A stretch of DNA of 32,000 nucleotides from Moritella sp. JT01 (GTDB taxonomy: Bacteria > Pseudomonadota > Gammaproteobacteria > Enterobacterales > Moritellaceae): NCBI RefSeq assembly GCF_001574435.1, contig NZ_LOCN01000024.1, positions 130,793 to 162,792 of the forward strand. Reading direction: 5' to 3'. Shown piece after piece: positions 4,713 through 26,313 of this stretch (positions are counted from its first letter, which is position 1; each line of letters begins with the position of its first letter). A model generated the notes under the pieces. It was not told the origin of the DNA, made no database searches, and was given only the letters and a program-made list of their open reading frames with translations. A program made the position numbers and the translations under genes.

Positions 4713-6614
4713 ATGGCAGCGGCTACTCAACAACATTCAATGATGAAAATCACCACACCATTGGGTGGTGACGCCTTACATATTACGGCCGTATCAATGC
4801 AAGAAAGCATATCTGCTTTGTACGAAATTAATGCCTCGGTGTATACCACAAATAGTGAGCTGGATTACCAAGCGCTACTGGGTCAATCGGTAACCATTGA
4901 ACTTGCTGTTAAAGATTCTTCTGGCAACTACACAAGAAATTTTAATGGTCTTGTAACAAGTATCAGTTCTCAGGGGCAATCTTATGAAGCACTGAATAAT
5001 ACCAGTAAATATTACCGTTATACCTTAATTATTTCACCGCAGCTTTGGTTAGCAACTATGCGAAGTAATTGCCGTATCTTTCAAGACCTCTCCGTTATCG
5101 ATATTGCGTCATTAATATTTCCTGAGCATAATATTCAGTTTGTTAACAATGCAGGTACTACATTTAAGCCCTATGAATACTGCGTTCAGTATCATGAAAC
5201 TGATTATCAACTTTTGACTCGATTATTTGCTCAGGAAGGTATATATTTTTACTTTAAGCAAAGCAGTGGGTCTAATTCCGTTATATTAGCAAATTCAACG
5301 ACTTCACATGTGAACTGTGCCGAAAGTCCTTTGCTACAATCAGATGAAATTATTTCTCATGCTTACGTCTCCACTTGGTCGTCATTGGCCGCAGTTAAAC
5401 CCGGTAAGGTGAGCTTAAGAGCTATTAACTTTGAACAGCCCTTAATGAATATTGACGGTAGTTCAGTTAATGCTGAGTTTACAGGGCAAGATAATTTAGA
5501 ACATTTTGAATATGTTTCTGGGCATAAAAATTTAGCCGCATCAAATTCATTTTCAGCAACACACTTAGAACAATTACAATCAAACAAAGCTATTTTTAAA
5601 GCCAACTCAAATTATGTGACGATTGAAAGTGGTAAGGTGATTGCTTTTTCTAAGCACGCAACACAAAGCCTTGTGGGGCCTGAATTCCTTATTACACGCA
5701 ACCATTTTATGGCGAGTCAAGGCTCGCAGCTTGATGTTAATTCAAAAAATGGTATGGAGATCAATTCTAATTTTTGTTGTGTTGAAAATACGCCAAACTA
5801 TCAGCCGATTATAAATATAAATAAACCAATCATTCGTGGTGTGCAAACGGCCATTGTAACGGGGGCTGCGTCGGACGAGATATATGTTGATTCTTACGGA
5901 CGCATTAAAGTTAAATTTTATTGGGATAGGCTAGGTACATCAGACGAGAACAGCTCTTGTTGGATCCGAGTTTCTCAAAATTGGGCGGGTAAAAACTGGG
6001 GCGCATTCTTTTATCCCCGTGTAGGGCAAGAGGTATTAGTATCATTCTTAGATGGTGATGCTTCACAGCCTATTGTTATTGGTGCTATTTATAATGGCGA
6101 TCAAATGCCCGTGAATCCTTTACCGGCCAACAAAACTCAAAGTGGTATTCGGACTCACTCAACAACAACTAACGGTAATGCAAACTGTAACGAACTGATT
6201 TTCGAAGACAAAATCGGCAGTGAATTGTTAGGCTTGCGTGCCGAGAAGGATCATCAATTAGTTGTCGTTAATAATCAGACCGACACTGTAGGTAATGACC
6301 GAACAACAACGGTCACCAATAATGACACATTGACAGTGACCAATGATCAAACGCAAACCGTCAATAACGACCGTAATAGTCAGATCGCTAATAACGATAC
6401 GCTCGATGTTGGCAATATACTTAAACTTAAGGCTGCAACGGAGATTAAGCTTGAAGTGGGTGCGGCTAGCTTATTAATGAAAAGTGACGGAACGATAAAG
6501 CTTTCTGGCGTTAATATCGAAATATCAGGGACAAATGTCAAAGTTAAAGGCACTGCAACTAATATCGAAGGGGCAATGGTTGTCGTGAAAGGCTCTGTCG
6601 TTAAAATTAATTAA
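4713..6614 (+). CDS. vgrG: T6SS spike protein VgrG/TssI
   Basis: VgrG features: LLTRLFAQEGIYFYFKQ, RVKFYWDRLG, SSCWIRVSQNWAGKNWGAFFYPRVGQEVLVSFLDGDASQPIVIGAIYNGDQMPV, and a C-terminal NNDTLTV/VNNDR beta-helix-like repeat. The track starts at TTG 4671. The in-frame ATG at 4713 (preceded by ttaggaaataaa) is a better start. Confidence 0.93.
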   Translation: MAAATQQHSMMKITTPLGGDALHITAVSMQESISALYEINASVYTTNSELDYQALLGQSVTIELAVKDSSGNYTRNFNGLVTSISSQGQSYEALNNTSKYYRYTLIISPQLWLATMRSNCRIFQDLSVIDIASLIFPEHNIQFVNNAGTTFKPYEYCVQYHETDYQLLTRLFAQEGIYFYFKQSSGSNSVILANSTTSHVNCAESPLLQSDEIISHAYVSTWSSLAAVKPGKVSLRAINFEQPLMNIDGSSVNAEFTGQDNLEHFEYVSGHKNLAASNSFSATHLEQLQSNKAIFKANSNYVTIESGKVIAFSKHATQSLVGPEFLITRNHFMASQGSQLDVNSKNGMEINSNFCCVENTPNYQPIININKPIIRGVQTAIVTGAASDEIYVDSYGRIKVKFYWDRLGTSDENSSCWIRVSQNWAGKNWGAFFYPRVGQEVLVSFLDGDASQPIVIGAIYNGDQMPVNPLPANKTQSGIRTHSTTTNGNANCNELIFEDKIGSELLGLRAEKDHQLVVVNNQTDTVGNDRTTTVTNNDTLTVTNDQTQTVNNDRNSQIANNDTLDVGNILKLKAATEIKLEVGAASLLMKSDGTIKLSGVNIEISGTNVKVKGTATNIEGAMVVVKGSVVKIN

Positions 6615-6650
6615 ACTTATTTTATTATCTGGTTTTAGAAAAGGATTTTT

Positions 6651-6938
6651 ATGGGAATGCCAGCTGCAACAATGACGAGTTTTCATGTATGCCCTGCGTC
6701 AACTAGTCGTGTGCCTCATATCGGCGGTCCTGTGATCGTCGGTTCGCCTACTGTGCTGATTGGAGGGCTCCCTGCGGCAAGGTTGGGTGATAAAATGGTA
6801 TGTTGTGGACCACCAGACACGATTGTGAAGGGATCTGCGACGGTACTCATTAATGGTAAACCTGCTGCTCGAATGGGGGATGCCGCTGCACATGGTGGAA
6901 AAATTGTTGCAGGTGTACCAACCGTGTTAATAGGTTAG
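6651..6938 (+). CDS. PAAR-domain T6SS spike tip protein
   Basis: 95 aa glycine/proline-rich PAAR pattern: MPAATMTSFHVCPAS...GGPVIVGSPTVLIGGLPAARLGDKMVCCGPPDTIVKGSATVLINGKPAARMGD. Directly follows vgrG. Confidence 0.9.
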   Translation: MGMPAATMTSFHVCPASTSRVPHIGGPVIVGSPTVLIGGLPAARLGDKMVCCGPPDTIVKGSATVLINGKPAARMGDAAAHGGKIVAGVPTVLIG

Positions 6939-6946
6939 GGATTGAT

Positions 6947-8095
6947 ATGGATGTACAGTCTCTACTTTCGCTGATTGGCCAGGTTGAAACCTACTTTCAA
7001 CAGCGTGAACGTTGCTTTGACAATTGCTGGTCAACGCATTTACAACTCAAGCAACTTGACCAGCAAGCCGCAGGTTGGTTTTATTTATTAACGCAACAAC
7101 GTGATGCATTACCAACTTTAGATATAGATAAACCCACTTGGCTTGATTTATTATTAGCACAAACTGTCACCGAGTTAGTGGAACTCGTCAAACATCGCAC
7201 TGCGATTAATGGTAGCGATAAGGTTTGTCTGCAATGGTGGTCTCAACGTCATAATGGTGCTGCGTTAATTGCTGCGCTTATTACACTGGAAGCCACAGCA
7301 AAGCAATCATCAACACCGCAGAGTTTGTTAACACAAGAATTGTTATGTGTTATAGCCACTGCAACACCTGTCATTAGCGATCAATTCAATTTTCTTCATG
7401 TCGATAATATTAAGCCCTGTATTCATTTTATTAACCAACATTTGGGCAAAGCATCGCATATCTGGTCTAGTCACTTTTTAGACGCAGAAACGACAGAACC
7501 AAACAGTAAAAAGTTATTAGCCTTGAGCTTATGTCGAGGTACGTTTCCTGTGAACTTGCCTGTATTAAGCAGCGTGTTATTAGCAGACAAATCTTTATTG
7601 AAACAATATGTTGTTCAAGCCGATAGCCGTTTGGTGGGTGTGGTAATCAATGAATTGTCTGCCCATAACGACAATGCCAAATTTGTATTATCACTCATGG
7701 CATTTAGCGGATATAAGCAATTCATTCCTTGGTTGATCCAAATGTTAACCGCTGGTTTTTTAAGTCACGCTGCTTTTGCTGCTTTGCATACCTTGTTAGG
7801 GGCTGACTTTGAGGCGCAACTACCTGCTAAATTATATGGCGAGTACGAACCTGAATCTAAAGTAGACTTGCTGGTGGCGTTGAAACAGTCATTGAGTGAT
7901 TGGTGGATATTACACCGCGATGAATTCCCAGAGCGTATATTGGCGGGTAAACCAATTAATGAATCAAATATAGACTTTATCTGGCAGCAAGGAAACATTT
8001 CGCAATGCGAGGTTGCTGCTTATCACTATTGGTGCATGAAGGCTGAACATCGTTTAACGGATGCGCGTGGGTTTAATATCGGAGGTATGCTATGA
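6947..8095 (+). CDS. T6SS-associated protein of unknown function, alpha-helical repeat-like (possibly the TIGR02270-type family)
   Basis: 382 aa, 8 nt downstream of the PAAR gene and overlapping the next gene by 4 nt. Helical content with HEAT-like stretches (LLALSLCRGTFPVNLPVLSSVLLADKSLLKQYVVQADSRLVGVVINEL, LTAGFLSHAAFAALHTLLG). Family assignment is from memory of vgrG neighbourhoods. Confidence 0.6.
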   Translation: MDVQSLLSLIGQVETYFQQRERCFDNCWSTHLQLKQLDQQAAGWFYLLTQQRDALPTLDIDKPTWLDLLLAQTVTELVELVKHRTAINGSDKVCLQWWSQRHNGAALIAALITLEATAKQSSTPQSLLTQELLCVIATATPVISDQFNFLHVDNIKPCIHFINQHLGKASHIWSSHFLDAETTEPNSKKLLALSLCRGTFPVNLPVLSSVLLADKSLLKQYVVQADSRLVGVVINELSAHNDNAKFVLSLMAFSGYKQFIPWLIQMLTAGFLSHAAFAALHTLLGADFEAQLPAKLYGEYEPESKVDLLVALKQSLSDWWILHRDEFPERILAGKPINESNIDFIWQQGNISQCEVAAYHYWCMKAEHRLTDARGFNIGGML

Positions 8096-9045
8096 AATTT
8101 ACGGTAGTCGATTATGCCGGTGAGTTTGGTTGTCATCCTAATTCAATCGATTCTGTTTTGACTGGGCTAACACCGGATATAGCCTTAACAGAGCTTGCTG
8201 CATACGCGCAATTTAAGCCCGTTAAACAAGTCGCGTTTACTCAATCAGAATTGGCTGATAACCGTATTGACCGATGGCAAATATTGATTAACGCTGCGTT
8301 AGCAAACTCGAATTTAATTGAATTAAGTCAAGATGCCCCGGTATTGATGGTGCTGCCTTATGTCGATGCTAAATTTAGCCAGATGCAGAATCACTTGATT
8401 GATTCTGTGATTGATATTTTACCTGCGTGGACAAGGCACCCTAATAGTCATTATTACTTGCTGGGAAGTGCGGGGTTTTATCAGGCATTGCGCCAAGCGG
8501 ACGTATTACTCAGTGCAGGTATGGAACAGGTGGTGATTGGTGCAGTAGACAGTTGGGCGACAGAGCAAGGCTTGTTAAAGTTTATTAGCAAGTTCAGTGA
8601 TTATGGCTCTGTTGTATTACCTGCTTCAGAAGGGGCTGTCTTTATTGTGTTGTCTCGGCTGTCACAGGGTATAGAGGTGTTAGGTTGTGGTATGGATGTG
8701 GTGATTGATCGACATGCTCCAAGTGGCCTAATTGCAATTATTGCGGATCTTGTCGCTAAACAAACTCAACCTGTACAGTATTTGTCGCTGTGTCATTCCG
8801 GAGATGAAAGCTTAGATCAAGTCGGGCACAATACACTCTGTGCTATTTCAGGGCTTTACGATGCCAATACTCAGTTTTTAACGCCACAAATTACGCAAGG
8901 CGATATTGGCGCTTGCTATAGCTTATTACATTTTTTACTCAGTTATCATCATTATAAACAGCATATCTGGCAGGGAACTAGCCTACAAATTGATACGTCG
9001 TCGTTGCCTTATGTTGGCGCTGCGATTTATCGCTGGTGTGACTGA
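8092..9045 (+). CDS. Divergent thiolase/beta-ketoacyl-synthase-fold protein, T6SS-associated
   Basis: 317 aa. Contains ADVLLSAGMEQVVIGAVDSWATEQGLL, similar to the KAS region around GGVDS, and TQGDIGACYSLLHFLL, similar to the C-terminal GDIGAASG motif. Its start overlaps the stop of the preceding gene (ATGA). Confidence 0.6.
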   Translation: MKFTVVDYAGEFGCHPNSIDSVLTGLTPDIALTELAAYAQFKPVKQVAFTQSELADNRIDRWQILINAALANSNLIELSQDAPVLMVLPYVDAKFSQMQNHLIDSVIDILPAWTRHPNSHYYLLGSAGFYQALRQADVLLSAGMEQVVIGAVDSWATEQGLLKFISKFSDYGSVVLPASEGAVFIVLSRLSQGIEVLGCGMDVVIDRHAPSGLIAIIADLVAKQTQPVQYLSLCHSGDESLDQVGHNTLCAISGLYDANTQFLTPQITQGDIGACYSLLHFLLSYHHYKQHIWQGTSLQIDTSSLPYVGAAIYRWCD

Positions 9046-9437
9046 GTATTTATCGCTGGTGTAACAGATTAATTACCGGCAGTAAGACACCTTATTATTG
9101 AAAAGATTAAATGGACTTATTTTCATGAATGGAATCACGATGCAAAGCCCTCTATCGATTGATAGGAGGGTTAACTATGCGGTATGCAATTAAATAACTG
9201 AAGTTGAGTGTATCTATTGGCTTAATTTTGATTTTTGGAAAACAAAAACGCTGCCTTCATGACAGAATTGCTGGTACTAAAGTAGTAAATATATAGTAAT
9301 TTCAGTGTTTTTTAATAAGTATGCTTATAGTTTATTAAAGTTGTAACTTAATTGTCACTATTCCTAATTAGTATTTTAAAACATTGGTATTTAACGGATT
9401 GATACCGACTAATATACTTTTACAAAGGAATGTTTAG

Positions 9438-12086
9438 ATGAAGAAAACAATACTATATTTGTCTGCGAGTGCTATTTTCTCGTTGACGGCACATGCTGAT
9501 ATTTTAATTTCTGAATATATTGAAGGGAGTTCGTTTAATAAAGCCATTGAAATAGCGAATACAGGTAATGAACTTGTTACGTTAATCGGCTATGAATTAG
9601 CAAAGTCTGCGAACGGCAATAATGAATGGGGTAACCGTTTGCCGTTAGATGGCATCGCTATTGGCGCGGGCGATGTGTTTGTGTTGGCTCATAGCGATGC
9701 TAACGCCGATATTTTGTCTAATGCGGACATGACTGATACTAACGTGATTAGCTTTAATGGTGATGATCCTATCGCGTTATTATTGAACGGTGAGGTACAC
9801 GATATCATCGGTGTAATGGGCGATCAAAACTTTGGTAAAGACGTTACCTTAGTAAGACAAAGTCGCATTGCAGCTACTATATACAAGGAATCAGATTGGC
9901 TTGTTAAGGCAAAGAATAATAGCGATGGCTTAGGTTCGTTAGACTCATCTGGTGGCGGTTCTGATAATGGCGGGGAACCTGATACTATTATCGAATCGAC
10001 AATTATGGCACTTCAGGGAAATGGTTGGTCCTCTCCCTATACAGACCCTACAACTGAAAAATACATCTCAGACGAAACGTTCCTAATTGAAGGTATTGTC
10101 ACGGCCATTCAAGTTAATGCTTTAGGTAATGATTTACCACAAGGGTTCTTTATTCAAGATGAACTGGGCGATAATGATGTGACAACATCTGATGGTATTT
10201 ATGTCTCAGGTTTTATAACGGGTCTATCTATCGGAGATAAGGTTGCGGTTACTGGTAAAGTCAAAGAGGATTACGGCTGGACTAAGGTACAAGCAACAAA
10301 TGTAGACGTGATTGGTAATGGCACGATACCTGTAACAAATGTAAGGGCAGCAAGTGACGATGGTGATTTTGATTTTACATTAGAAAGACATGAAGGCATG
10401 TTCGTTAATATTGACCAACAAGCAGATATGTATGTTGCACGTACTTATGGCTTTGACTATGGCCCATTTCGTAACAACATGGTGATAGCCAAGTCTGGCC
10501 TTAACCTGCACCCCAATCAATTGAATATTCCCGCTTCTGCAGGTGCAAACTCGCAACGTGATGATAACGAAGATAGACGCATTATCGTGGAAACCATGAT
10601 TAAAGCGCCCAACGGTGCCCCTCTATGGTATCCAACATTCGGTCAAGATGATGGAACGGGTACCACAAACGACTATATACGTAATGGTGACTTAGTTAAC
10701 GGGTTAGAAGGTGTGCTAGGCTATTCTTACGGTGATTTTAGACTTTATATTACTAACCAAGCTGACGAATTTACTTTTATTCATGCGAACCCTCGATTAT
10801 CTCGTCCTGATGTTACAGGCGAGGGACTACGCATCGCCACTTTCAATGTTTTAAACTACTTTAATTCTCCTTTTGACGGAGCTGCGAACCCCACTGGGAC
10901 GAATCGTGGCGCTACGACTTATGCCGAATTTGAATTACAAGGCGATAAGATCGCGGCTGCTATTTTGGCTTTAGATGCAGATATTATTGGTTTAATGGAA
11001 ATCGAAAATAATGGTTTCGGTGATAGTTCTGCAGTCGCTTATTTGGTTGATAAAGTGAATTCATTATTACCAGACGTTGAGCAATATGCATTTGTCACAA
11101 GCCCTGATAGTGCGGGTTTTATTGGTAGTGATGCCATTGCTAATCAAGTGATTTACAAACCTTCGATGGTGACGCTTGATACTTACCGAATCATTAAGAT
11201 GCCTGAGCAACATGCAGGTCAAACGGGTAAAGAAAATGGTGACAACTATCAACGCGATGCGATAACGCCAACGTTTAAGGTTAATGACTCAGAAGAGTTG
11301 GTCACTGTCTCTGTTAATCATTTCAAATCTAAGGGGTCTACGTGTTGGGAAGATGTTGCTATTCAGAATGGCGAAGATGTTGGCTTACAAGGTTCTTGTG
11401 AGCACTTACGTGTTTCAGCGGCTCAACATTTGGGTAATGAAATGGCGTTAATTGCGGGTAATAAGCTGATCATTGGTGATCTTAATGCTTATGGGCAAGA
11501 AGACCCGCTACTTGTGTTAACAACCATGCCCGAAAACCACAGCGTGATGCCTGCACGTATGACATACATAGGTGACGAACCAATGGCGGGAAGTAATCCA
11601 AACGCTATCTCTGATTCATTTGGGTTTGTTAATGTGATCAGTGAACAGCATCCTGCCGCGTACAGTTATATTTATAACGACACTGTCGGTACACTCGATT
11701 ATATTTTAGTAGACAGTGAAACTGCATCAAAAGTGGTCGATGCAAATGTGTGGCATATCAATGCATCAGAATCAAAGTTGTTTGAGTATTCGTCAAAATA
11801 TACTGCAGACTTAGCTAAGTACCCTGATTTATTTAGATCGTCAGATCATGAACCCGCTATTGTTATTTTGGATGTATTAGGCGATGCTGACCAACCTGAC
11901 CAACCTGACCAACCTGACCAACCTGACCAACCAACGCCACCGTCTGGTACTGATGACACAACAAGTAACGATGATGACGAAGAAGAATGGTATGGCGGCT
12001 CTACTGGCTTATTATCACTTGGTTTCTTAACTGGTTTTGCTTTGTTTCGACGCTTCGGTCAACGATATATTAAGATGAACAGATAA
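9438..12086 (+). CDS. Secreted ExeM/NucH-like endonuclease/exonuclease/phosphatase-family nuclease with lamin-tail-like N-domain and GlyGly-CTERM-like sorting tail
   Basis: 882 aa. Signal peptide MKKTILYLSASAIFSLTAHA; LTD-like ISEYIEGSSFNKAIEIANTGN...GDVFVLAHS; OB-like DLPQGFFIQDELGDNDVTTSDGIYVSG; EEP motifs IATFNVLNYF, DIIGLMEIENNG, VNHFKSKGS, IIGDLNAY, DYILVD, SSDHEPAI; C-terminus WYGGSTGLLSLGFLTGFALFRRFGQR. Confidence 0.9.
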   Translation: MKKTILYLSASAIFSLTAHADILISEYIEGSSFNKAIEIANTGNELVTLIGYELAKSANGNNEWGNRLPLDGIAIGAGDVFVLAHSDANADILSNADMTDTNVISFNGDDPIALLLNGEVHDIIGVMGDQNFGKDVTLVRQSRIAATIYKESDWLVKAKNNSDGLGSLDSSGGGSDNGGEPDTIIESTIMALQGNGWSSPYTDPTTEKYISDETFLIEGIVTAIQVNALGNDLPQGFFIQDELGDNDVTTSDGIYVSGFITGLSIGDKVAVTGKVKEDYGWTKVQATNVDVIGNGTIPVTNVRAASDDGDFDFTLERHEGMFVNIDQQADMYVARTYGFDYGPFRNNMVIAKSGLNLHPNQLNIPASAGANSQRDDNEDRRIIVETMIKAPNGAPLWYPTFGQDDGTGTTNDYIRNGDLVNGLEGVLGYSYGDFRLYITNQADEFTFIHANPRLSRPDVTGEGLRIATFNVLNYFNSPFDGAANPTGTNRGATTYAEFELQGDKIAAAILALDADIIGLMEIENNGFGDSSAVAYLVDKVNSLLPDVEQYAFVTSPDSAGFIGSDAIANQVIYKPSMVTLDTYRIIKMPEQHAGQTGKENGDNYQRDAITPTFKVNDSEELVTVSVNHFKSKGSTCWEDVAIQNGEDVGLQGSCEHLRVSAAQHLGNEMALIAGNKLIIGDLNAYGQEDPLLVLTTMPENHSVMPARMTYIGDEPMAGSNPNAISDSFGFVNVISEQHPAAYSYIYNDTVGTLDYILVDSETASKVVDANVWHINASESKLFEYSSKYTADLAKYPDLFRSSDHEPAIVILDVLGDADQPDQPDQPDQPDQPTPPSGTDDTTSNDDDEEEWYGGSTGLLSLGFLTGFALFRRFGQRYIKMNR
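11887..11931 (+). repeat. Five perfect tandem copies of the 9-mer ctgaccaac, encoding the (DQP)n linker
   Basis: Direct reading: ctgaccaac x5, giving the DQPDQPDQPDQPDQP linker between the nuclease domain and the C-terminal tail. Confidence 0.95.
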
Positions 12087-13889: not shown

Positions 13890-13915
13890 ATATACCCCAA
13901 CGAGTTGGGGTATAT
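13890..13915 (-). terminator. Near-perfect inverted repeat, likely terminator of the minus-strand motor-like operon
   Basis: ATATACCCCAA (13890-13900), CGAG loop, TTGGGGTATAT (13905-13915); 11-bp stem located 28 nt past the 13943 stop. The downstream T-tract on the minus strand (cttattt) is weak. Confidence 0.55.
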
Positions 13916-13942: not shown

Positions 13943-14608
13943 TTAAGGCCTACGAATGTAAATGACAGCGCGACGGTTTGCTGCTCTAGCTGCGTGTACA
14001 TCCTTAGTTGTACTTAATTCGACTTTGGGTCTTGAGTCAGCATAAGCAACTGCTTTCAGTTCCTTTTTTTCAACACCTTGTTGCTCAAGTCGTTTAACAA
14101 TTACAACGGCTCGAGCGCTCGATAACTCCCAGTTTGATGGGTAGAGTAGGGTATTGATTGGAATGTCGTCAGTATGACCTTCAATTTCAATCAGCTGGTT
14201 TTTGACATTTGAGTTATTAATGACGTCAGCAATTTGATCAATCACAGGTAACATCTGTGATTTGATCTCCGCATCACCAGAGCCATAAAGGGCCTTATTA
14301 GAAAACTCAATCTTGATACCTTTTTTATCAATACTGACATCGACTAATTCAGTCATGTTATTTTTTTCAAGTACACTCGTAATGTCTTTTTTCAATTCAC
14401 TAAAAGGCATAGAGGTCTTTGTGGTGCTGGTTATCGATGTGATACCTTGCTCGAGCTCTTGTAAACGACCTTCATTTACTTCTGATACACTGACCAGAAT
14501 AACAAAGAATGCGAGCAATAACGTGATCGCATCACTGTATGTGACTAACCAACCATTATCGTCTTGATCGTTTAATTGCGAGGTAGACGGAGGTCTTTTT
14601 AATCTCAT
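13943..14608 (-). CDS. MotB-like stator protein with OmpA/peptidoglycan-binding domain
   Basis: 221 aa. N-terminal single TM with NGWLVTYSDAITLLLAFFVILVSVSEV (MotB-type YxD, Asp26), and C-terminal OmpA-like IEIEGHTDDIPINTLLYPSNWELSSARAVVIVKRL. Confidence 0.88.
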   Translation of the reverse strand: MRLKRPPSTSQLNDQDDNGWLVTYSDAITLLLAFFVILVSVSEVNEGRLQELEQGITSITSTTKTSMPFSELKKDITSVLEKNNMTELVDVSIDKKGIKIEFSNKALYGSGDAEIKSQMLPVIDQIADVINNSNVKNQLIEIEGHTDDIPINTLLYPSNWELSSARAVVIVKRLEQQGVEKKELKAVAYADSRPKVELSTTKDVHAARAANRRAVIYIRRP

Positions 14609-15396
14609 TTACCTAACTCCGTCATTTTATGTTTGGGCGCTAGGTAACAGTTTAATCTGTCTTGAATATACAAATTATCTTTATTTTCTGTTATCAACTC
14701 AAAACCAGCTGTTATAATTTGACGCTCGAAGAAAATGCGGTGCTGTCTTCTTGCGATGCGAATTGCAGATGGCTTAAAGAGTAGCTGTGCTAACAATGTA
14801 CCGTACAATGTCGTTAATAGAGCAATGGCAAGGCCTTTGCCTAATTCAGACAAATCACCACTCATATTATCAAGCATGATAATTAAGCCAATTAAAGTAC
14901 CAACCATACCAAAACTAGGGGCATATATTGAAAGTGTATTAATGACATTTACGTGTTCATTTCTACGTTGAAAATCACTTTCATTCGTGTCGTCAAGCAT
15001 ACTAGAAAGAACTTTCGATTTATAACCTGTACCCAATAACTCCATTGCATTGATAATGAAATCATCCTTTTTTTCTTTCTCAGTCAAACTATTTTCTAAC
15101 GCTGTAATACCTTGCTTTTTATATATATCATTCCATTCGACAATACGATTAACAAGTTGCTTTAATTGTTTGTGTTGGTTCTTTTCGTCAAGCAGATTAA
15201 CCATCATTTCGGTAAATGCGGCCCAAATCAAACGAAACGAGTAACTGATTAAGGTGGCACCAAAAGTTCCGCCAAGCACGATAAGTAAACTGAATAGGCT
15301 TACAAATATCAGGTAATTATCAGTGCTTTTAAAAATTGCGTAAACGAATAAACCGACTGCACCTAATATGCCTACGAAAGTACTAATTGAAATCAT
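14605..15396 (-). CDS. MotA/TolQ/ExbB-family proton channel protein, MotA-like
   Basis: 263 aa, four hydrophobic segments with MotA-type topology, including SIYAPSFGMVGTLIGLIIMLDNMS and LGKGLAIALLTTLYGTLLAQLLFKP. Has a large cytosolic loop between TM2 and TM3. Overlaps the MotB-like ORF by 4 nt. Confidence 0.88.
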   Translation of the reverse strand: MISISTFVGILGAVGLFVYAIFKSTDNYLIFVSLFSLLIVLGGTFGATLISYSFRLIWAAFTEMMVNLLDEKNQHKQLKQLVNRIVEWNDIYKKQGITALENSLTEKEKKDDFIINAMELLGTGYKSKVLSSMLDDTNESDFQRRNEHVNVINTLSIYAPSFGMVGTLIGLIIMLDNMSGDLSELGKGLAIALLTTLYGTLLAQLLFKPSAIRIARRQHRIFFERQIITAGFELITENKDNLYIQDRLNCYLAPKHKMTELGK

Positions 15397-15399
15397 TTA

Positions 15400-17220
15400 T
15401 TATCCCTTTAAATCATTCATAGTGAAACGACCTGAATTGAGCAACTGTCTTACTGCTACAACAATGTCTTGTTGCGCTCGAGCTATGCTTTCTTGATCTG
15501 GCACTTCGAGTTGTTTTATCTCAAATAGCAGCGCTGATTTTAATTTAACAGGCAGATCTGTTAATGCATGTTGAATTTGCTCTTCTTCAAAAGAGTGCAA
15601 ACCAATGGCCACTATTTTACGCTCAAGGTTACGCAATGCATCGGCAAGTACTAACGTTGGTGTCTTCAATACATCATCAAAGCAATAAAATTTCTCACGA
15701 ATTTTTATGTAGGTTTCTGGGGAGTTTTCTTTAAGCTGCGTTAATAATGCTTGCTGCTCGTTTAGCGGTAAACGATCTAACATTCCAAGTAACAACTCAG
15801 TGCCATCTGCATTGATGTGCTCGAAGTCTGGTACATGCCGTGATTTCTTGGCTAGACGCTGTGCAATCTCGTTAAACGTTGCGACTGGGAAGTTATGGAA
15901 CTGTCCAATTTCAACTGCAACTAATGCACGCTCAGTAGGGCTTAATTGTTTTAATACAGCCGTTGATTTTAATTCTTCAAGCTGTATTAAAACTAACGCT
16001 TTTATTCTTGGTGGTTCTTCTTTAATTAACCAAGATATTTGATTGTCGGTTAATTTTTGAAGGTAAGAAAATGGTTTATGTGTAACTGCTTCAGCATCAT
16101 TTTCTATGTGAGTCAATAACTGTAGTAGATCATTTAGACTAGTGATCAAAGCAGGGTAATCTTTTTGCTCTTGCTTAAGGTAGTTTATATATTGTGGAAT
16201 TTCATGCACAAGATTAGGGAAAATAGAAGTGAATATCGAACGACCTAATGTTTGATATGAAGCTGCTAACAGTGGCATATTTTGCTCGTTTAAAGCGATG
16301 TTAGCTACGGTGGTTTGGATTTTGTCCGGAGATGCTAAACTCAAGCTGATAATTCGCTGACGAAGTGCTTGTACATCTTGTTGCTGTTGCATTAATAATG
16401 GTTCAGCGGATGGTGGTGTACTATCTATTTCTTCGCGAGGCTCTTTCTTATTTGTATTCCGTAACAATAATACTAATAGAAGCATAATCAAAACAGATAA
16501 TAATATAATTAGCCAATTGATCCAATCTTGATACCAAGGCGCTTGTGTTAAATCGTCAAGATCTTGAACAGTCGTTGTTGGAAAATTAGTTGCTGTGATC
16601 GTTAATGTATCCCCTCTAAAAGGGTTGTAATTTAACTTTTCAGTAAGTAAATTTCTTAGGAATACAACTTGTTCGTTATTAACCGTGTTAGTCACTAATA
16701 GCTTAGTGTGAAGTACTCGCAATTTTTTTTCTGACGTGTCCTTACTTCTTGGTTGATTGGCTTGTTTTACTTGATTTTCGAGTAACTCAGCTTGTTTGGT
16801 AATTGTTTGCTCCATCTCTGCAATTTGAGCTTTTGCCTGCGCTACTACTGGGTTGACAGCAAGTTCTTTAGGCGTATTACTTGGTAAAGCTGGTAAGTCA
16901 AATTCATCTTCAGTTTCAGGTGTTAATGCTGAAGGCGTTTGATTACTCTGTTCTGGACTTTGCACTTGTTCCGGAGTGGTATGTGAGGCTTGAGGTTGTC
17001 CGTTATTATTCGTTAAATCTTGAGCCCTAGGCGTCGTTAATACTTCAGCTCTAATCGAAAGTATAAAGCTATCATCACCGAGATAGGCTTCGATATCTCT
17101 ATTCAGCCTTTCTTCTAAGCCTTGACTTAACTCGAGTGATTCAATTTCATTTGCCATAACCAGTGGTGTGAGCACAAGTAATATAGCTAATAATAAAGAT
17201 TTAAAAATAGTCATAATCAT
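15400..17220 (-). CDS. FliF(RBM3-TM2)-FliG(middle+C-terminal)-like fusion protein
   Basis: 606 aa. Signal peptide (1-23); residues ~33-63 GLEERLNRDIEAYLGDDSFILSIRAEVLT and ~166-213 KLRVLHTKLLVTNTVNNEQVVFLRNLLTEKLNYNPFRGDTLTITATNF resemble the two halves of the FliF third ring-building motif. This is followed by APWYQDWINWLIILLSVLIMLLLVLLLR (FliF PWWQ-TM2-like). Residues ~390-460 resemble FliG-M and ~472-602 resemble FliG-C. Confidence 0.75.
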   Translation of the reverse strand: MIMTIFKSLLLAILLVLTPLVMANEIESLELSQGLEERLNRDIEAYLGDDSFILSIRAEVLTTPRAQDLTNNNGQPQASHTTPEQVQSPEQSNQTPSALTPETEDEFDLPALPSNTPKELAVNPVVAQAKAQIAEMEQTITKQAELLENQVKQANQPRSKDTSEKKLRVLHTKLLVTNTVNNEQVVFLRNLLTEKLNYNPFRGDTLTITATNFPTTTVQDLDDLTQAPWYQDWINWLIILLSVLIMLLLVLLLRNTNKKEPREEIDSTPPSAEPLLMQQQQDVQALRQRIISLSLASPDKIQTTVANIALNEQNMPLLAASYQTLGRSIFTSIFPNLVHEIPQYINYLKQEQKDYPALITSLNDLLQLLTHIENDAEAVTHKPFSYLQKLTDNQISWLIKEEPPRIKALVLIQLEELKSTAVLKQLSPTERALVAVEIGQFHNFPVATFNEIAQRLAKKSRHVPDFEHINADGTELLLGMLDRLPLNEQQALLTQLKENSPETYIKIREKFYCFDDVLKTPTLVLADALRNLERKIVAIGLHSFEEEQIQHALTDLPVKLKSALLFEIKQLEVPDQESIARAQQDIVVAVRQLLNSGRFTMNDLKG

Positions 17221-17222
17221 CC

Positions 17223-17786
17223 TTATTTATCACCCATTTTAGTTAATGCGTTCTGAACATCTTCGTATGATGGATCAAGTTCTAATGCTTTATTCCATGC
17301 GGCTCTTGCATTGGCATAGTTTTTCATTCTGTAATTCACGCTACCTTTAAGTGCGTGAGTTTGTGCAAGACTAGGCGCTGCTTTAATCGCATCTTCGACT
17401 TTAACAAGAGCCTCTGGGTAATCTTTATCTACAGCAAGTTGTTGAGCCGCAGATAATAAGCGTAATGCCTTACCTATATCTTCTGATGCTGGTTCTTCTT
17501 CATCTAATATGTCTTCGAACAGCTCGAGGTCGTCTTGATTGTTGATAAGTTCTGCTGCATTTATTTCCTCATCGTTTTCGATCTCGAATATAATATCGCT
17601 ACCAAGTACGTTAAATGCGACTTTTGATTCGTAGTAAGTTCCCTTATGTCGAAGGGATAATACGCCTAGTTCTAATGGGTTACCTGCTGCATCTGTAATT
17701 GCTTGTACATGATTATCATGATTATCTTTTTTAGCACTACATGCGGTAAGGGTGATAAGCATGCATAAAGTAATTATCTGTTTCAT
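17223..17786 (-). CDS. TPR-containing lipoprotein
   Basis: 187 aa. Lipobox LITLTAC at the N-terminus. TPR-like AHTLKGSVNYRMKNYANARAAWNKALELDPSYEDVQNAL. Confidence 0.8.
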   Translation of the reverse strand: MKQIITLCMLITLTACSAKKDNHDNHVQAITDAAGNPLELGVLSLRHKGTYYESKVAFNVLGSDIIFEIENDEEINAAELINNQDDLELFEDILDEEEPASEDIGKALRLLSAAQQLAVDKDYPEALVKVEDAIKAAPSLAQTHALKGSVNYRMKNYANARAAWNKALELDPSYEDVQNALTKMGDK

Positions 17787-17795: not shown

Positions 17796-18920
17796 TTAGA
17801 GACGGAAGCTAAGTGTAATATCGAAGCTTATGCCACCAAATGTAATCTCTGATGCATAGCCTGATTTAGAACCTGCATCGATATTATGTTTAGGGACGCT
17901 AATGATGCCTAGTTCTAACGAACCATTATCGGGGAAGCTAATTTCAGTACCTACTCTAAACGCAACGGCATGGTAATTTTTGAATAATATTTGACCAATA
18001 CCGATATAAGGTTTGAATTTAATTTTTTGGTTCCAATCTGGCATTAATAATAAAATTCGACCTTCGATGTTTACACCGGCTAAGTTTATAATGTCTCTAT
18101 TTTCAAGGTTTGTGATCGCATCAAAGATAATTGCGTAATCAAGGTAAGGTGTGAAACCTGAAGATTTATTGTTACGCACACCAATTGTTGTGAACTTATC
18201 TACAATCGTAGCTTTACCTGTGCTTGTGTTTAATCGTTTAGCTTCAAGACCCCAAACACCTAAAGTAACTGCCCAGTCTGATTTTTTTGAAAAACCAATA
18301 TCCGAATTTATCTCAACGGTTTCAGATATATTTTTAGCCCATATCACATCCATCGTTTTTGCATTAACAAGTTTTAGTTGCAGATCGTAAACGTCATCAT
18401 GAACTGATGCATCCCACATTAGAAAAGCATTCGCACGAATGTCTTTCGCCATTGTTTGTAATTCTTTATTTGTTTCGGCGCTATGTTTCACACGCACACT
18501 GCCATTTTTTACAGTGATATATGTTTTAGAGCATTGAACACATGTTTTAACTCGTATGTCGTTGTCAATAAGGCTTAATGATAATTTATTTTCGATTAAG
18601 CTTAATGTTGTTTTGTCTAGTTGGTGCTGTAATCTATCACCGGTATGGTAGAGGGCAACTGTTCTAATATTTTGATCAGAAAGTTCCCAGGGAAGTTCTC
18701 CCCAGATATCTTTACGGTCAAAAATATTTAAAAATACAAGGTATGATTGGCTAGGGGTAATATTCGATGGCGTTAAAGCTTGATGAGTTATTTCTGATTG
18801 TTCGTCATTGTCGGTAATTTCTGCGGAATTGCTGAATGGGATATATGCGATTGAAATTATACAAAAAGAAAAAAGATATAAAAAGAATGATTTTTTTATA
18901 TCAAAAAATGAACGTGTCAT
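17796..18920 (-). CDS. Secreted/outer-membrane protein, FlgO/CsgG/TolB-N-like N-terminal half and beta-barrel-like C-terminal half
   Basis: 374 aa. Signal-like hydrophobic N-terminus. Central KELQTMAKDIRANAFLMWDASVHDDVYDLQLKLVNAKTMDVIWAKNIS resembles FlgO/LpoB-type folds. C-terminal alternating strands (FTPYLDYAIIFDAI...KIKFKPYIGIGQILFKNYHAVAFRVGTEISF...EITFGGISFDITLSFRL) end in an aromatic-rich strand typical of OM barrels. Confidence 0.5.
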   Translation of the reverse strand: MTRSFFDIKKSFFLYLFSFCIISIAYIPFSNSAEITDNDEQSEITHQALTPSNITPSQSYLVFLNIFDRKDIWGELPWELSDQNIRTVALYHTGDRLQHQLDKTTLSLIENKLSLSLIDNDIRVKTCVQCSKTYITVKNGSVRVKHSAETNKELQTMAKDIRANAFLMWDASVHDDVYDLQLKLVNAKTMDVIWAKNISETVEINSDIGFSKKSDWAVTLGVWGLEAKRLNTSTGKATIVDKFTTIGVRNNKSSGFTPYLDYAIIFDAITNLENRDIINLAGVNIEGRILLLMPDWNQKIKFKPYIGIGQILFKNYHAVAFRVGTEISFPDNGSLELGIISVPKHNIDAGSKSGYASEITFGGISFDITLSFRL

Positions 18921-19242: not shown

Positions 19243-20127
19243 ATGTCTGATGTTGTAATTCATCAAGTACGACCAACTAAGGTTCTTTTTACTCAAGGAA
19301 TCATGCAATCTTTAACTCAAGTACAGTGGGTTGAGCAAACAGACACCAGTACTTATGTGGTTACTGAAAAAACACCGTTTCACCCGGTAAGTCATATCTG
19401 GCCAGATCATCCTGCGGATAAAGGGTTTTTAGTATTTAACGGTAAGCAATACACAGTCACAGATTGCGTGACGGGTGCTTTTGATATTGAAAATAGTAAG
19501 CTATATAAAGGTACAGATATACCAGTAAAACGTGGCGAGCCCGGCTGGTATTTTGTTGTCTTACACGAATTAGAATTAGACATGGCATTAAACATTAATG
19601 ATGCTGTTGAATTAGTTGTTGATGCAAGGTATCAAACGGCGTTAAGTCGGGGGCACAGTGCAGGGCATTTGGCTTCTTATGCGTTAAATAAGGTTTTAGA
19701 ACAAGGTTACTGGCGTAAAGATGCATCACGCAAAGATGTATTAAATAATCGCGACTTTCATTCATACGCACAAACATTAAGTTTGGTCTCTGAAAACAAA
19801 TCGACGGACAGTTACCGTTTAGGTAAAACGTTGAAAAAACGAGGCCTTAATGTGGCAGAAATACTTGCAGATCTATCACTCATTGAAGCGAGGGTTAATG
19901 ACGTACTGGCAACCTGGCTTGCGACTAACGCATCTGTTGTGATGAAGTGTGAAGGTGATACGCTTACAGACTCTCGCTTTTGGTGTTGCGATTTAGGTAT
20001 TGGAGAAAGTATCACTATGCCTTGTGGAGGCTCACATGTGCAAAGTTTGACTGAATATAAAGATATAACGATTGAGTTAACATTTAAGTCTGACCAAGAA
20101 CTAGAGATGATCACAAAGGCTAATTAA
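19243..20127 (+). CDS. Alanyl-tRNA editing / AlaX-like (threonyl/alanyl second additional domain) protein
   Basis: 294 aa. Zn-site-like HSAGH (RGHSAGHLASYAL) and C-x3-H (MPCGGSHVQSLTEY) motifs characteristic of the ThrRS/AlaRS SAD superfamily. N-terminal VQWVEQTDTSTYVVTEKTPFHP resembles AlaX domain entry. Confidence 0.8.
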   Translation: MSDVVIHQVRPTKVLFTQGIMQSLTQVQWVEQTDTSTYVVTEKTPFHPVSHIWPDHPADKGFLVFNGKQYTVTDCVTGAFDIENSKLYKGTDIPVKRGEPGWYFVVLHELELDMALNINDAVELVVDARYQTALSRGHSAGHLASYALNKVLEQGYWRKDASRKDVLNNRDFHSYAQTLSLVSENKSTDSYRLGKTLKKRGLNVAEILADLSLIEARVNDVLATWLATNASVVMKCEGDTLTDSRFWCCDLGIGESITMPCGGSHVQSLTEYKDITIELTFKSDQELEMITKAN

Positions 20128-23755: not shown

Positions 23756-25690
23756 ATGCCTGTAATTACTCTTCCAGATGGCGCTCAGCGTCAATTTGAC
23801 AACCCAGTAACGATTATGGAAGTTGCTGCAGATATCAGTTCTGGTCTTGCTAAAGCGTGTATCGCTGGCCGCATTAATGGTGAACGTGTTGACGCATGTG
23901 ACCTGATCACTGAAGACGCTGCAATTGAAATCATTACTTCTAAAGATGCTGATGGTCTAGAGATCCTACGCCATTCTTGTGCGCATTTACTTGGTCATGC
24001 TATTAAGCAATTATGGCCAAACACCAAGATGGCTATTGGCCCTACCATTGATAAAGGCTTCTATTATGATGTCGATATGGAAGAACCAATTAGTGAAGCT
24101 GATTTAGCTAAGCTAGAAAAACACATGAACAAACTGGTTAAGACCAACTATCAAGTAATTAAGAAAGTTGTATCTTGGCAAGAAGCACGTGACACGTTTG
24201 AAGAACGTGGTGAGACTTATAAAGTAGCTATCTTAGACGAGAACATCGGTAAAGATGAAACGCCTGCTTTATATTTCCATGAAGAATACGTAGATATGTG
24301 TCGTGGCCCACACGTACCAGTCATGAAGCATTGCCAGCATTTCAAATTAATGTCTATTGCAGGCGCATACTGGCGCGGTAACTCAGACAATAAGATGTTA
24401 CAACGTATATATGGTACAGCTTGGACTGATAAGAAAGAGCTAAAAGCACATATTGAACGTCTTGCTGAAGCTGAGAAGCGTGATCACCGTAAAATTGGTA
24501 AGCAACTTGATCTTTACCATATGCAAGAAGATGCACCAGGTATGGTGTTCTGGCATAACGATGGTTGGATTATTTTCCGTGAGTTAGAAAATTTAATTCG
24601 TGAAAAATTACGTGAATTTGATTACCAAGAAGTGAAAGGTCCACAAATCATGGATCGTAGCTTATGGGAAAAATCAGGTCATTGGGATAAATATTCAGAA
24701 GGTATGTTCTGTACTCATTCAGAAAACCGTGAATATGCGATTAAACCAATGAACTGTCCGGGCCACGTTCAGATTTATAACCAAGGTTTAAAATCTTACC
24801 GTGATTTACCATTACGTATGGCTGAGTTTGGTTCATGTCACCGTAATGAACCATCGGGTTCGCTACATGGCTTAATGCGTGTACGTGGCTTCACACAAGA
24901 CGATGCACACATCTTCTGTACTGAAAGCCAAATTCAGAAAGAAGTATCTGATTGTATCAAGATGGTTTTTGAAACTTACGCTACATTTGGTTTCGAGAAT
25001 ATTGAGATTAAATTATCAACACGTCCTGAAAAACGTGTAGGTAGTGATGAGACTTGGGATAAATCTGAGCAGGCACTTGCTGATGCATTAACTGCTAGTG
25101 GCTTAAGTTATGATGTGCAAGAAGGCGAGGGTGCGTTTTATGGTCCTAAGATTGAATTCACACTACATGACTGCTTAGATCGTGCATGGCAATGTGGTAC
25201 AATTCAGCTAGACTTCTCAATGCCTGAGAAATTAGGTGCGGAATATGTGTGTGAAAGTAACGGTCGTGAGACGCCTGTTATGATTCACCGAGCGATTTTA
25301 GGTTCACTTGAGCGCTTCATTGGTATTCTAATTGAAGAATATGCAGGACTTTTCCCTACTTGGTTATCACCTGTACAAGCTGTTATTATGAACATAACAG
25401 ACAAACAGGCTGTTTTTGCTACAGAATTTGTAGAAAAAATGAAGAAAGTAGGCATTAGAGCAAAATTAGACTTGAGAAATGAGAAGATAGGCTTTAAAAT
25501 CCGCGAACATACTTTGAAACGTGTGCCGTATCTTTTGGTCATCGGCGATAAAGAAGTCGAATCAGGAGAAATAGCAGTACGTACTCGTAAGGGCGTTGAC
25601 TTAGGTACTATGAAGTTAGATGACTTCATCAGTAAATTACAAACCGAAGTCAATAGCCGCGGTAAAACAACTTTGGAGGATTCGTTATAA
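23756..25690 (+). CDS. thrS: Threonyl-tRNA synthetase
   Basis: 644 aa. TGS domain [24 protein letters not shown]; [10 protein letters not shown]; RPMNCPGH-type [13 protein letters not shown]; [13 protein letters not shown]; C-terminal anticodon domain. Followed by infC-rpmI-rplT. Confidence 0.98.
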
Positions 25691-26229
25691 AAGGCGGAAA
25701 AAAAGGTCAACAACAAACGACCAGACAACATCGTATCAACGAAGAAATTCGTATACCTGAATGTCGCTTAAACGGTGCTGATGGTGAAGTGATTGGAATC
25801 GTATCTATAAGAGAAGCTCTTGCTATCGCAGAAGAAGCTAGTTTAGATCTTGTAGAAATTAGCCCGAATGCCGAGCCTCCTGTTTGCCGTGTCATGGATT
25901 ACGGTAAATTTATATACGAGAAAAGTAAGTCTGTTAAAGAGCAGAAGAAAAAGCAAGTTCGGGTTCAGGTTAAGGAAATAAAATTCCGACCTGGAACTGA
26001 TGTTGGCGATTATCAGGTAAAACTACGCAACCTGACTCGCTTCCTCGAAGAAGGTAACAAAGCAAAAATTACGCTGCGTTTCCGAGGTCGAGAAATGGCG
26101 CACCAGAGCTTAGGCTTTGATCTTTTAAATCGTATTAAAGAAGATTTAAAAGAAATTGCAGTCGTGGAAGCTTTCCCGAAAATGGAAGGTCGCCAAGCTG
26201 TAATGGTGTTAGCCCCTAAAAAGAAATAG
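25687..26229 (+). CDS. infC: Translation initiation factor IF-3
   Basis: The track starts at 25789, but the frame is open upstream with IF3 N-terminal homology: (ATA)[43 protein letters not shown], matching recalled E. coli [28 protein letters not shown]. GGAGG at 25675-25679 sits 7 nt before ATA 25687. Total 180 aa. Confidence 0.95.
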
Positions 26230-26313
26230 TAAGTGCTTCCAAGTGATATGAGTACGTAAGTATTCATATTCGCCTTACTGTTATTCATTAATATTCAACA
26301 ATGCGGAGTTATA

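Follow-up and report, generated by a model that had tools for sequence, protein, structure and literature searches.

A natural FliF-FliG fusion protein encoded with its own stator genes in a conserved five-gene cassette

Genes and features of the locus

We analysed 32,000 nucleotides from Moritella sp. JT01 (contig NZ_LOCN01000024.1, positions 130,793 to 162,792; this whole stretch is referred to as the window, and all coordinates are given within it), in which an earlier note, made from the sequence alone, had described a natural FliF-FliG-like fusion. We identified the fusion gene as the third of five tightly packed open reading frames (ORFs) on the minus strand, from 18920 to 13943, which encode in order proteins of 374, 187, 606, 263 and 221 amino acids (aa). 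The fusion ORF lies at 15400-17220, and the peptides quoted from it in the earlier note occur at the residues given there. The start codon chosen by NCBI is two codons downstream, giving a protein of 604 aa; the sequence is 100% identical to the Moritella sp. JT01 entry, which NCBI labels ‘Flagellar motor switch protein FliG’. We are highly confident both of the domain architecture of this protein and of the five-gene cassette in which it stands.

The first four genes are separated by 9, 2 and 3 bases, and motA and motB overlap by 4 bases. The best reading is that all five are co-transcribed, with the operon probably ending at a terminator-like hairpin just after motB. Upstream of the operon there is no sigma-54-like promoter and, by eye, no clear FliA-type promoter, and promoter-like sites are not enriched. 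The G+C content of the cassette is unremarkable. The features are listed below (AF2, AlphaFold2; RBM, ring-building motif; TM, transmembrane helix; TPR, tetratricopeptide repeat; pLDDT, predicted local distance difference test score).

17796-18920, minus strand: secreted protein of 374 aa with an N-terminal alpha/beta domain and a beta-rich C-terminal half (conserved in 46 loci)
17223-17786, minus strand: TPR lipoprotein of 187 aa, lipobox LTAC with Ser at +2 (TPR_2, E 1.6e-7)
15400-17220, minus strand: FliF(RBM3-TM2)-FliG fusion of 606 aa, putative single-polypeptide rotor (ORF, Pfam and NCBIfam, PDB matches, AF2, Foldseek)
17152-17220, minus strand: N-terminal signal peptide of the fusion, aa 1-23, MIMTIFKSLLLAILLVLTPLVMA, with a V-M-A cleavage-type end (translation; cleavage predicted from the sequence)
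17029-17151, minus strand: RBM3a, helix alpha1 and strand beta1, aa 24-64 (AF2 secondary structure)
16735-17028, minus strand: insertion at the beta-collar position, aa 65-162, with a Pro/Gln-rich disordered stretch, an LPxLP motif and a helix at 124-154 (AF2)
16882-16896, minus strand: LPALP, aa 109-113, the LPGLP motif of the family, at the tip of the insertion (translation)
16582-16734, minus strand: RBM3b, beta2-alpha2-beta3 with the RGD...F motif, aa 163-213 (AF2)
16453-16533, minus strand: transmembrane helix, aa 230-256, equivalent to FliF TM2 (translation, family hydropathy, FliF alignments)
16096-16404, minus strand: helical region, aa 273-375, weakly FliG_N-like (3hjl alignment, Foldseek)
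15832-16068, minus strand: FliG middle domain, aa 385-463 (Pfam FliG_M)
15409-15801, minus strand: FliG C-terminal domain, aa 474-604, including the FYCF hinge (MFxF equivalent, 511-514) (Pfam FliG_C; pLDDT 75-86)
15505-15555, minus strand: torque-helix equivalent LPVKLKSALLFEIKQLE, aa 556-572 (translation, FliG alignments)
14605-15396, minus strand: MotA/PomA-like stator A subunit, 263 aa (Pfam MotA_ExbB, E 1.1e-19)
13943-14608, minus strand: MotB-like stator B subunit, 221 aa, with plug, transmembrane Asp26 and an OmpA-type peptidoglycan-binding domain (Pfam)
13890-13915, minus strand: terminator-like hairpin, probable operon end (consensus match only)

Domain architecture of the fusion protein

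Sequence and fold comparisons confirm the predicted order of parts in the 606-aa protein: a signal peptide, a FliF-type RBM3, one transmembrane helix corresponding to FliF TM2, and a complete FliG in which the N-terminal domain is weakly and the middle and C-terminal domains are clearly recognisable. The identification as a natural FliF-FliG-like fusion is borne out by Pfam, NCBIfam, profile comparison with the PDB, AF2 and Foldseek, and the resemblances greatly exceed what chance would give.

The FliG part carries matches to Pfam FliG_M at residues 393-463 (E 6.8e-12; 45.9 bits, cut-off 25) and FliG_C at residues 495-600 (E 9.2e-13; 48.8 bits, cut-off 23.3), in agreement with the earlier placement of a FliG middle domain at about 401-457 and of FliG-C at about 473-602. 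The NCBIfam fliG model TIGR00207 matches with E 2.3e-16 over model positions 103-326 of 338, and its score of 60.1 bits, against an equivalog cut-off of 226.7, leaves the fusion protein far below the FliG equivalog level. A phmmer search of the PDB recovered Aquifex FliG (3hjl; E 1.9e-11) over fusion residues 285-603, the alignment opening at FliG residue 10, which corresponds to fusion residue 285; within it, residues 285-375 are weakly aligned to FliG 10-107. In FliG, the N-terminal domain co-folds with the C-terminal tail of FliF. A correctly placed Pfam FliG_N match occurs in only one relative (P0022, E 6e-4), other FliG_N matches being mostly mis-registered on the middle domain. Among 32 diverse members of the family, FliG_C and FliG_M are found in 32 of 32 (best E 1.3e-22) and YscJ_FliF_C in 13 (best E 7e-8), whereas MgtE_N is found in 20 and is weaker (best E 6.7e-8). 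The possibility, raised with the original prediction, that the C-terminus is merely an MgtE_N-like helical repeat lacking FliG-C was rejected because the FliG_M and FliG_C matches are much stronger and universal.

Evidence for FliF ancestry of the N-terminal part comes from several alignments. The engineered Vibrio fusion 8z4d aligns in two collinear stretches, residues 179-259 with FliF 433-513 and residues 382-600 with its FliG part. As a single sequence, the protein matches Vibrio FliF 417-497 (8z5s; E 0.0026) and the FliF part of 8z4d (domain i-E 0.0093), while the family profile matches Salmonella FliF (6scn) with E 6.6e-6, profile positions 38-321 corresponding to FliF 234-532. A profile of the periplasmic part only, built from two distant clades, is collinear with FliF 227-483 (E 0.011) and pairs alpha1, the VPGALSNQP region, the strand IERLSVAVVVN, alpha2, the motif KRGDTLNVVNSPF and TM2. 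RBM3a is aligned to Salmonella FliF from residue ~227 (LKFANDVESRIQRRIEAIL...), and RBM3b to Vibrio FliF 433-513 and to Salmonella FliF (...SDKRGDTLNVVNSPF). Pfam YscJ_FliF_C is weak in the window protein itself (E 0.1) and exceeds its cut-off of 23.8 bits in relatives such as P0009 (E 1.4e-7; 32.5 bits); the same family (PF08345) is precomputed on P0008-P0015.

The part of FliF that precedes RBM3 is missing. We found no Pfam match to YscJ_FliF (PF01514, which covers RBM1 and RBM2) in the window protein or in any of the 32 relatives, and only ~23 residues, resembling a signal peptide, precede RBM3. A hydrophobic N-terminus is common across the family by hydropathy. As the earlier note had proposed, a cleavable-looking signal peptide stands in place of FliF TM1, RBM1 and RBM2; its cleavage is a prediction from the sequence. 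In real flagella, RBM1 and RBM2 surround the export gate.

An AF2 model of the fusion protein, computed from an 11-sequence alignment (mean pLDDT 65, predicted template modelling score, pTM, 0.28), contains a helix at 24-47, a strand at 52-64, a disordered stretch at 64-123 (pLDDT below 50), a helix at 124-154, a strand at 163-177, a helix at 182-195, a strand at 205-211, the TM helix at 230-256 and only helices from 273 on. The order of these elements is that of RBM3 (alpha-beta-beta-alpha-beta), with a break after beta1, and a membrane helix follows; together with the alignments to 6scn and 8z4d, this supports the RBM3 and second TM that had been recognised upstream of the FliG part. Foldseek comparison of the model with the PDB placed full-length FliG first (8umx_B, E 5.7e-9; 3hjl, E 1.1e-8; ~333 aligned columns), followed by FliF MS-ring chains (probability 1.0, E 0.01-0.3).

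The disordered stretch and the helix at 124-154 agree with the description of a Pro/Gln-rich and helical segment sitting where the beta-collar of FliF would be. The earlier note had treated the split of the ring-building motif as a special feature. The split is there, but it is not special, as canonical FliF RBM3 also consists of RBM3a and RBM3b divided by the beta-collar (PMC11481574); what differs is the content of the insert. In the model, the long flanking strands at 52-64 and 163-177 could be a stub of the beta-collar. The length of the insertion varies across the family, and in a distant clade it is short and lacks the helix.

Conservation was counted over 132 sequences, comprising 131 representatives of the fusion family and the window protein. 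In RBM3a, E36, Y46 and F52 are kept family-wide. The insert carries the motif L-P-G-L-P, whose positions are conserved in 125, 127, 126, 94 and 94 of the 132 sequences, respectively; its alignment to the VPGALSNQP region of FliF has a low posterior probability. The RGD...F motif of RBM3b is likewise retained (R202 in 111, G203 in 126, D204 in 129 and F213 in 106 of 132).

Against FliGs of known structure, the family profile scores 80.4 bits with Aquifex, 61 with T. maritima, 53 with Vibrio, 42 with H. pylori and 17.9 with Salmonella. The FliG part is nearer to Aquifex FliG than to Salmonella FliG, which argues against its being a recent copy of a gammaproteobacterial fliG.

Distribution and synteny of the cassette

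An exhaustive profile search of 1.84 billion representative sequences (threshold E<=1e-30) recovered the fusion architecture in at least 144 cluster representatives. Nearly all of the top 150 measure 550-720 aa, start with a hydrophobic stretch, cross the membrane once at about 170-300 and end in a FliG-like part. When a word-indexed search was run a second time, using a diverse profile, the same 15 proteins came back. Public databases name the proteins of this family ‘flagellar motor switch protein FliG’ or ‘hypothetical’. Named sources are Moritella spp., Vibrio sp. SCSIO 43136, and metagenome-assembled genomes (MAGs) labelled Saccharospirillaceae, ‘Pseudomonadota’ and Fibrobacteraceae.

Scanning species-representative genomes, we found 36 loci, nearly all in marine genera of the Oceanospirillales type, including Oleispira, Bermanella, Thalassolituus, Oceanobacter, Bacterioplanoides, Marinicellulosiphila and Oceaniserpentilla. 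With two metagenomic loci, these make up a gammaproteobacterial clade of 38 loci (L001-L038), in 36 of which the five genes occur in the same order: partner (the 374-aa protein), TPR lipoprotein, fusion, MotA, MotB. The two exceptions (L025 and L036) are cut by contig ends. A distant clade from metagenomes, 20-29% identical, has the same five gene families in another order (L040, L042-L047): fusion, beta-barrel partner (353-442 aa), TPR lipoprotein, MotA, MotB. Among the protein relatives of this clade is one from a Fibrobacteraceae MAG. In all 46 related loci with sufficient flanking sequence, the fusion is accompanied by the other four genes. All-against-all clustering of ORFs from 51 loci (the window and 50 others) showed that these five families are the only ones common to all clades, with counts of 51, 46, 46, 46 and 45, the last being the TPR lipoprotein.

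The cassette is found as a unit in differing genomic contexts. No flagellar genes lie next to it in the window or in L001 and L002; no genes for the export gate, rod, hook or FliM/FliN are nearby, and the cassette itself has no rod genes. A tblastn search against plasmids gave no match.

A decaying relic of a lost flagellar system, functionless at present, would fit a gene set smaller than that of a flagellum. The ORFs are nevertheless intact and full-length, with their motifs kept in at least 46 loci, and linkage is maintained across at least 144 clusters that diverge to ~20% identity; we strongly disfavour this reading and regard it as extremely improbable.

Locus L027 (JBLHVV010000051.1) is labelled as a Crocinitomicaceae (Bacteroidota) MAG, yet its cassette is typical of Bermanella/Oceanospirillales, with MotA and MotB 49-50% identical to those of the window; the label may reflect mis-binning or transfer. 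Three proteins (P0077, P0081 and P0139) are soluble, of FliG length (~310 aa), and have a canonical-looking FliG N-terminus and no EHPQ motif (STESPRI, KDENARI and INESSRV, respectively). They match the fusion-family profile with E about 1e-42 to 1e-33, better than would be expected of ordinary FliG. Judged by sequence, they may be unfused versions of the fusion system, accompanied by a separate FliF-like gene.

Rotor residues of the FliG part

The earlier note had singled out TLVLADALRNLERKIVAIGL (520-541) as the torque helix. This segment instead aligns with the first helices of FliG_C, and the true equivalent is LPVKLKSALLFEIKQLE (556-572), a mapping on which three independent alignments, with the FliG proteins of Vibrio, T. 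maritima and Aquifex, agree. The counterpart of E. coli FliG R281 is K559, a position held by R or K in 114 of 132 sequences; that of D289 is E567, with E or D in 51 of 132, and F566 takes the place of D288. The phenylalanine of the MFxF-type hinge (F514) is kept in 110 of 132.

The surface of FliG that binds FliM has diverged. The EHPQ motif of FliG_M reads E402-P-P-R in the window protein; across the family Glu402 is present in 120 of 132, and H, P and Q are unconserved. The equivalent of FliG R160 is E437 in the window protein and E, A, S or K in the family, with no Arg. The EHPQR FliM-binding motif is thus lost in the fusion family, as judged from the alignments.

Stator genes

Residues of the stator proteins were counted in 46 cassette MotA and 46 cassette MotB proteins. 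The best NCBIfam match of the cassette MotA is PomA (E 8e-41), and its PDB match to PomA (8bri) has E 8e-26; it falls under all NCBIfam equivalog cut-offs (PomA, 140 bits against 341). PomA R88, E96 and D114 are indispensable for motility (PMC10374538). In the window protein, K93, K94 and E101 correspond to PomA R88, K89 and E96; the R88 position is basic in 38 and the E96 position acidic in 44 of the 46 proteins. Taken with the torque helix, rotor-stator charges appear to be largely kept on both faces of the interface.

T167, T195 and T196 correspond to PomA T158, T185 and T186, three threonines that are kept in all Na+-driven stators, whereas H+-driven stators have Ala at T158 and T185 (PMC10374538). 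T167 and T196 are present in all 46 cassette MotA proteins, and T195 in 40. Because this three-threonine signature is present, the cassette stator is probably Na+-coupled. The cassette MotB has a MotB_plug domain (Pfam E 6.7e-14) and an OmpA domain (E 6e-14), and its D26, equivalent to PomB D24, is invariant (46/46).

The TPR lipoprotein and the 374-aa partner

The TPR repeats of the 187-aa lipoprotein are C-terminal, and its counterparts in the distant clade carry the lipobox too. In the 374-aa partner, a hydrophobic N-terminus precedes a conserved alpha/beta domain at residues 55-200, and there is no lipobox. The window copy alone matches no Pfam or NCBIfam family, and a homology search with the partner retrieved only Moritella-type relatives. 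The partner is homologous to the 353-442-aa protein of the distant clade (hhalign probability 97.8%, E 8e-13). Pfam FlgO (PF17680) is weakly matched in 8 of 16 homologues, below the family thresholds (best E 8.5e-4; the window copy has no match), and FlgT_M, LpoB and CsgG give single weak matches among them. A profile of the N-terminal domain has LpoB as its best PDB match (E 0.09), and the full profile found nothing in the PDB. Within the H-ring of Vibrio, FlgO forms a ring anchored in the outer membrane (bioRxiv 10.64898/2025.12.02.691832). We treat the FlgO/LpoB resemblance, detected at the level of sequence profiles, as a lead only.

The AF2 model of the partner is poor (pLDDT 41.6) and has about ten strands between residues 216 and 373. 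Most homologues end in LGYRF or HYTF, and the JT01 copy in SFRL; outer-membrane barrels typically end in an aromatic residue. The partner is a probable outer-membrane beta-barrel.

At residues 127-130 the partner has a C-x-x-C pair, CVQC in the window and CIEC or CLEC in Oceanospirillales, where the distant clade has APEL or SPEL; it could form a clade-specific disulfide or metal site.

The complete gene set bears on the idea that the fusion is a membrane-anchored FliG decoy, sequestering or regulating stators or their ion leak as a brake, reservoir or sensor. A FliG_C with stator-binding charges, anchored in the membrane and lacking a switch complex, could serve in this way. At every locus, however, the fusion is accompanied by its own stator genes and two outer-membrane partners, and it retains a ring-building domain and an invariant periplasmic motif, none of which a decoy would need; we consider a decoy very improbable.

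Other genes of the window

Outside the cassette, the window encodes part of a type VI secretion system, a DEAD-box helicase, a major facilitator superfamily transporter, AlaE, a DUF2797 protein, thrS-infC-rplT-pheS and a GGDEF-EAL receptor. The secretion locus, at 1324-12086 on the plus strand, comprises a ClpV-like AAA+ ATPase (1324-3921), Hcp (4157-4636) and VgrG (4671-6614), followed by two ORFs with no Pfam match (6947-8095 and 8092-9045) and by an 882-aa protein (9438-12086, plus strand) with a lamin-tail domain and an endonuclease/exonuclease/phosphatase domain. The three ORFs after VgrG could be an effector/immunity region.

Divergent from the cassette is a 294-aa ORF (19243-20127, plus strand) with no Pfam match at E<=1e-5, whose HSAGH...CGGSH-type motifs recall AlaX/ThrRS editing domains, an impression from reading the sequence alone. 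The thrS-infC-rplT cluster lies at 23756-26892 (plus strand); despite its presence, an Rfam search of the whole window at gathering thresholds revealed no leader or other RNA family. Ten kilobases from the cassette is a 976-aa 7TMR-DISM receptor with PAS, GGDEF and EAL domains (27068-29998, plus strand), predicted to function in cyclic di-GMP turnover.

A proposed rotor-stator machine and its alternatives

Given these analyses, we think it rather likely that the fusion ORF encodes the rotor subunit of a self-contained, filament-less, envelope-spanning flagellar-type rotor-stator machine that is probably driven by Na+. In this model, RBM3 would assemble fusion subunits into an inner-membrane ring, as FliF does with about 34 subunits, and there would be one FliG per FliF, by analogy with engineered fusions. 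Bound to peptidoglycan, the dedicated MotAB units would exert force on the torque helix of FliG_C and thereby turn or load the ring. The ring would be driven in one direction only because there is no switch (FliM/FliN). The periplasmic insert, with LPGLP at its tip, would engage the TPR lipoprotein and/or the beta-barrel partner instead of FliE and FlgB, and ion-motive force would thereby be delivered to the outer membrane. Candidate outputs are movement of a surface component, secretion and envelope maintenance. We infer from sequence everything in this model that goes past homology and synteny. Whether the ring of fusion protein truly rotates we put at an even chance. More tentatively, and with somewhat less than even confidence, we suggest that the cassette represents a widespread class of flagellum-independent rotary machine, in which a FliF/FliG ring with dedicated Na+/H+ stators is coupled through LPGLP to a beta-barrel and a TPR lipoprotein.

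Several observations weigh against this proposal. Moritella and the Oceanospirillales hosts are flagellated, so the cassette may have some link to the flagellum. The ring, its rotation and the contacts among the five proteins are predictions from sequence. Of the five charge positions classically recognised in FliG, only two are retained, with D575 at R297 and H543 at K264. In MotA, the R88 position is Gln in 8 of 46 proteins, those of the distant clade, and the equivalent of the indispensable D114 is T123 in the window. The AF2 model of the fusion is of moderate quality (pLDDT 65, pTM 0.28) and leaves the insert unmodelled, and the beta-barrel assignment and FlgO/LpoB likeness of the partner depend on weak matches and a poor model. 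The Fibrobacteraceae assignment comes from a single MAG.

The same genes could instead build a force transducer or tether that does not rotate, with a static FliF/FliG-like platform in the inner membrane on which MotAB pulls as in Tol-Pal or Ton. Other 5:2 motors of the MotA/ExbB family energise outer-membrane processes without a large rotor (reviewed in PMC9389320); the cassette has two proteins directed to the outer membrane, and several torque-helix charges are lost. Against this, conservation is strongest in the charged interface of FliG_C with MotA and in RBM3, the ring builder, with its RGD...F, all of which a ring turned by stators needs, and MotB retains a plug and a peptidoglycan-binding domain like a true stator. 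We consider a non-rotating transducer unlikely.

Quite improbable, in our judgement, is that the fusion serves an ordinary flagellum, polar or lateral, as an accessory or alternative rotor component, such as an additional ring to which another type of stator is recruited. It is true that all parts are of flagellar ancestry, that the partner is weakly FlgO-like, and that the known hosts, partly from general knowledge, are mostly flagellated marine gammaproteobacteria. Yet flagellar genes are absent beside the cassette in the window and in L001 and L002, and the cassette moves as a unit. RBM1, RBM2 and the FliM-binding residues are absent, there is a member in a Fibrobacteraceae MAG, and the FliG part scores 17.9 bits with Salmonella against 80.4 with Aquifex FliG.

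The proposed rotor-stator machine could be an ancient sister of the flagellar motor, a rotor and stator without type III export, or an old spin-off from it, because the FliG part is far from the FliG of the hosts and the family spreads from Gammaproteobacteria to Fibrobacterota. To our knowledge, the FliF/FliG rotor and MotAB stator have been described only within the flagellum. The finding owes its importance to the five-gene cassette with its own MotA and MotB, which was absent from the earlier note. If the proposal is true, a portable torque-generating core without export apparatus, rod, hook, filament or switch can work, or once worked, alone, which bears on the evolutionary assembly of the flagellar motor. 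The machine would be a new member among ion-driven envelope machines (Ton, Tol, Agl-Glt, GldLM and Zorya), and structural and synthetic studies would gain a rotor and a stator that are minimal by nature, encoded by one gene and two genes, respectively. The ‘FliG’ label that databases give to the fusion family can also mislead genome-based predictions of motility.

Comparison with known systems

In our literature search, we came across neither a natural FliF-FliG fusion nor the five-gene cassette. Cavalier-Smith (2006) mentions FliG paralogues in spirochaetes only, and a proteomics paper on Fibrobacter succinogenes describes a Ton-type ExbB/ExbD/TonB cluster, not this cassette.

The fusion shares with FliF and FliG the interrupted RBM3 fold, RGD...F, TM2, the FliG N (weak), M and C domains, an MFxF-type hinge and a charged torque helix. 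It differs in being one chain rather than two polypeptides, with a signal peptide in the place of TM1 and without RBM1 and RBM2. A variable insert that bears the invariant LPGLP occupies the position of the FliF beta-collar, EHPQR is lost, and the gene is not among flagellar genes. FliG is soluble, ~330 aa long and encoded in a fliFGH context, whereas the fusion is membrane-anchored, 606 aa long and has no fli genes nearby. The protein should be filed neither as FliG nor as FliF, because it lacks defining features of each.

The engineered FliF-FliG fusions of Salmonella and of Vibrio alginolyticus (PDB 8z4d and 8z4g) also have FliF followed by FliG in one chain. These are laboratory-made, contain full-length FliF (~580 aa) and FliG (945 aa in total) and operate inside a complete flagellum; the natural fusion of 606 aa is without their M-ring and export-gate-facing parts. 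Engineered fusions build membrane rings efficiently, and those of Salmonella support motility (PMC10941966; PMC11481574); a 1:1 covalent rotor is therefore workable. In FliF, the beta-collar contacts FliE and FlgB of the rod (PMC11481574). An RBM3-like domain with an insertion is used outside the flagellum by SpoIIIAG, which forms the ring of a sporulation channel (PMC11481574). SpoIIIAG is unlike the fusion in having no FliG and no stator, and neither the family profile against the PDB nor Foldseek matched it to the fusion protein.

The PomAB and MotPS stators have, like those of the cassette, rotor-facing K/K...E charges, the T158/T185/T186 signature, and a MotB plug, channel Asp and OmpA-like domain. 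They serve a flagellum, whereas the cassette stator is encoded beside its own rotor and has lost the D114 equivalent. The outer-membrane-anchored and TPR proteins beside a stator-rotor pair find a parallel in the Vibrio H-ring (FlgO/FlgP/FlgT) and in PflA/PflB of Campylobacterota. Those scaffolds surround an LP-ring, rod and filament, unlike the cassette, and the 374-aa partner has an extra beta-rich C-terminal half.

ExbBD-TonB, TolQR-TolA, AglRQS-Glt, GldLM and ZorAB resemble the cassette as filament-less systems in which an ion-driven inner-membrane motor acts with outer-membrane or surface partners (PMC9389320, PMC12505986). They have no FliG rotor or FliF ring, and their A subunits belong to a non-flagellar branch, whereas the cassette MotA is of the flagellar type. 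An account of MotAB evolution (PMC12505986) refers to FliG in the introduction only and mentions no FliG-associated non-flagellar stator. By analogy, the fusion and its stator would come closest in their working to the core of rotor and stator in the flagellar motor, and the cassette would resemble the non-flagellar envelope motors Ton, Tol, Agl-Glt and GldLM in its organisation.

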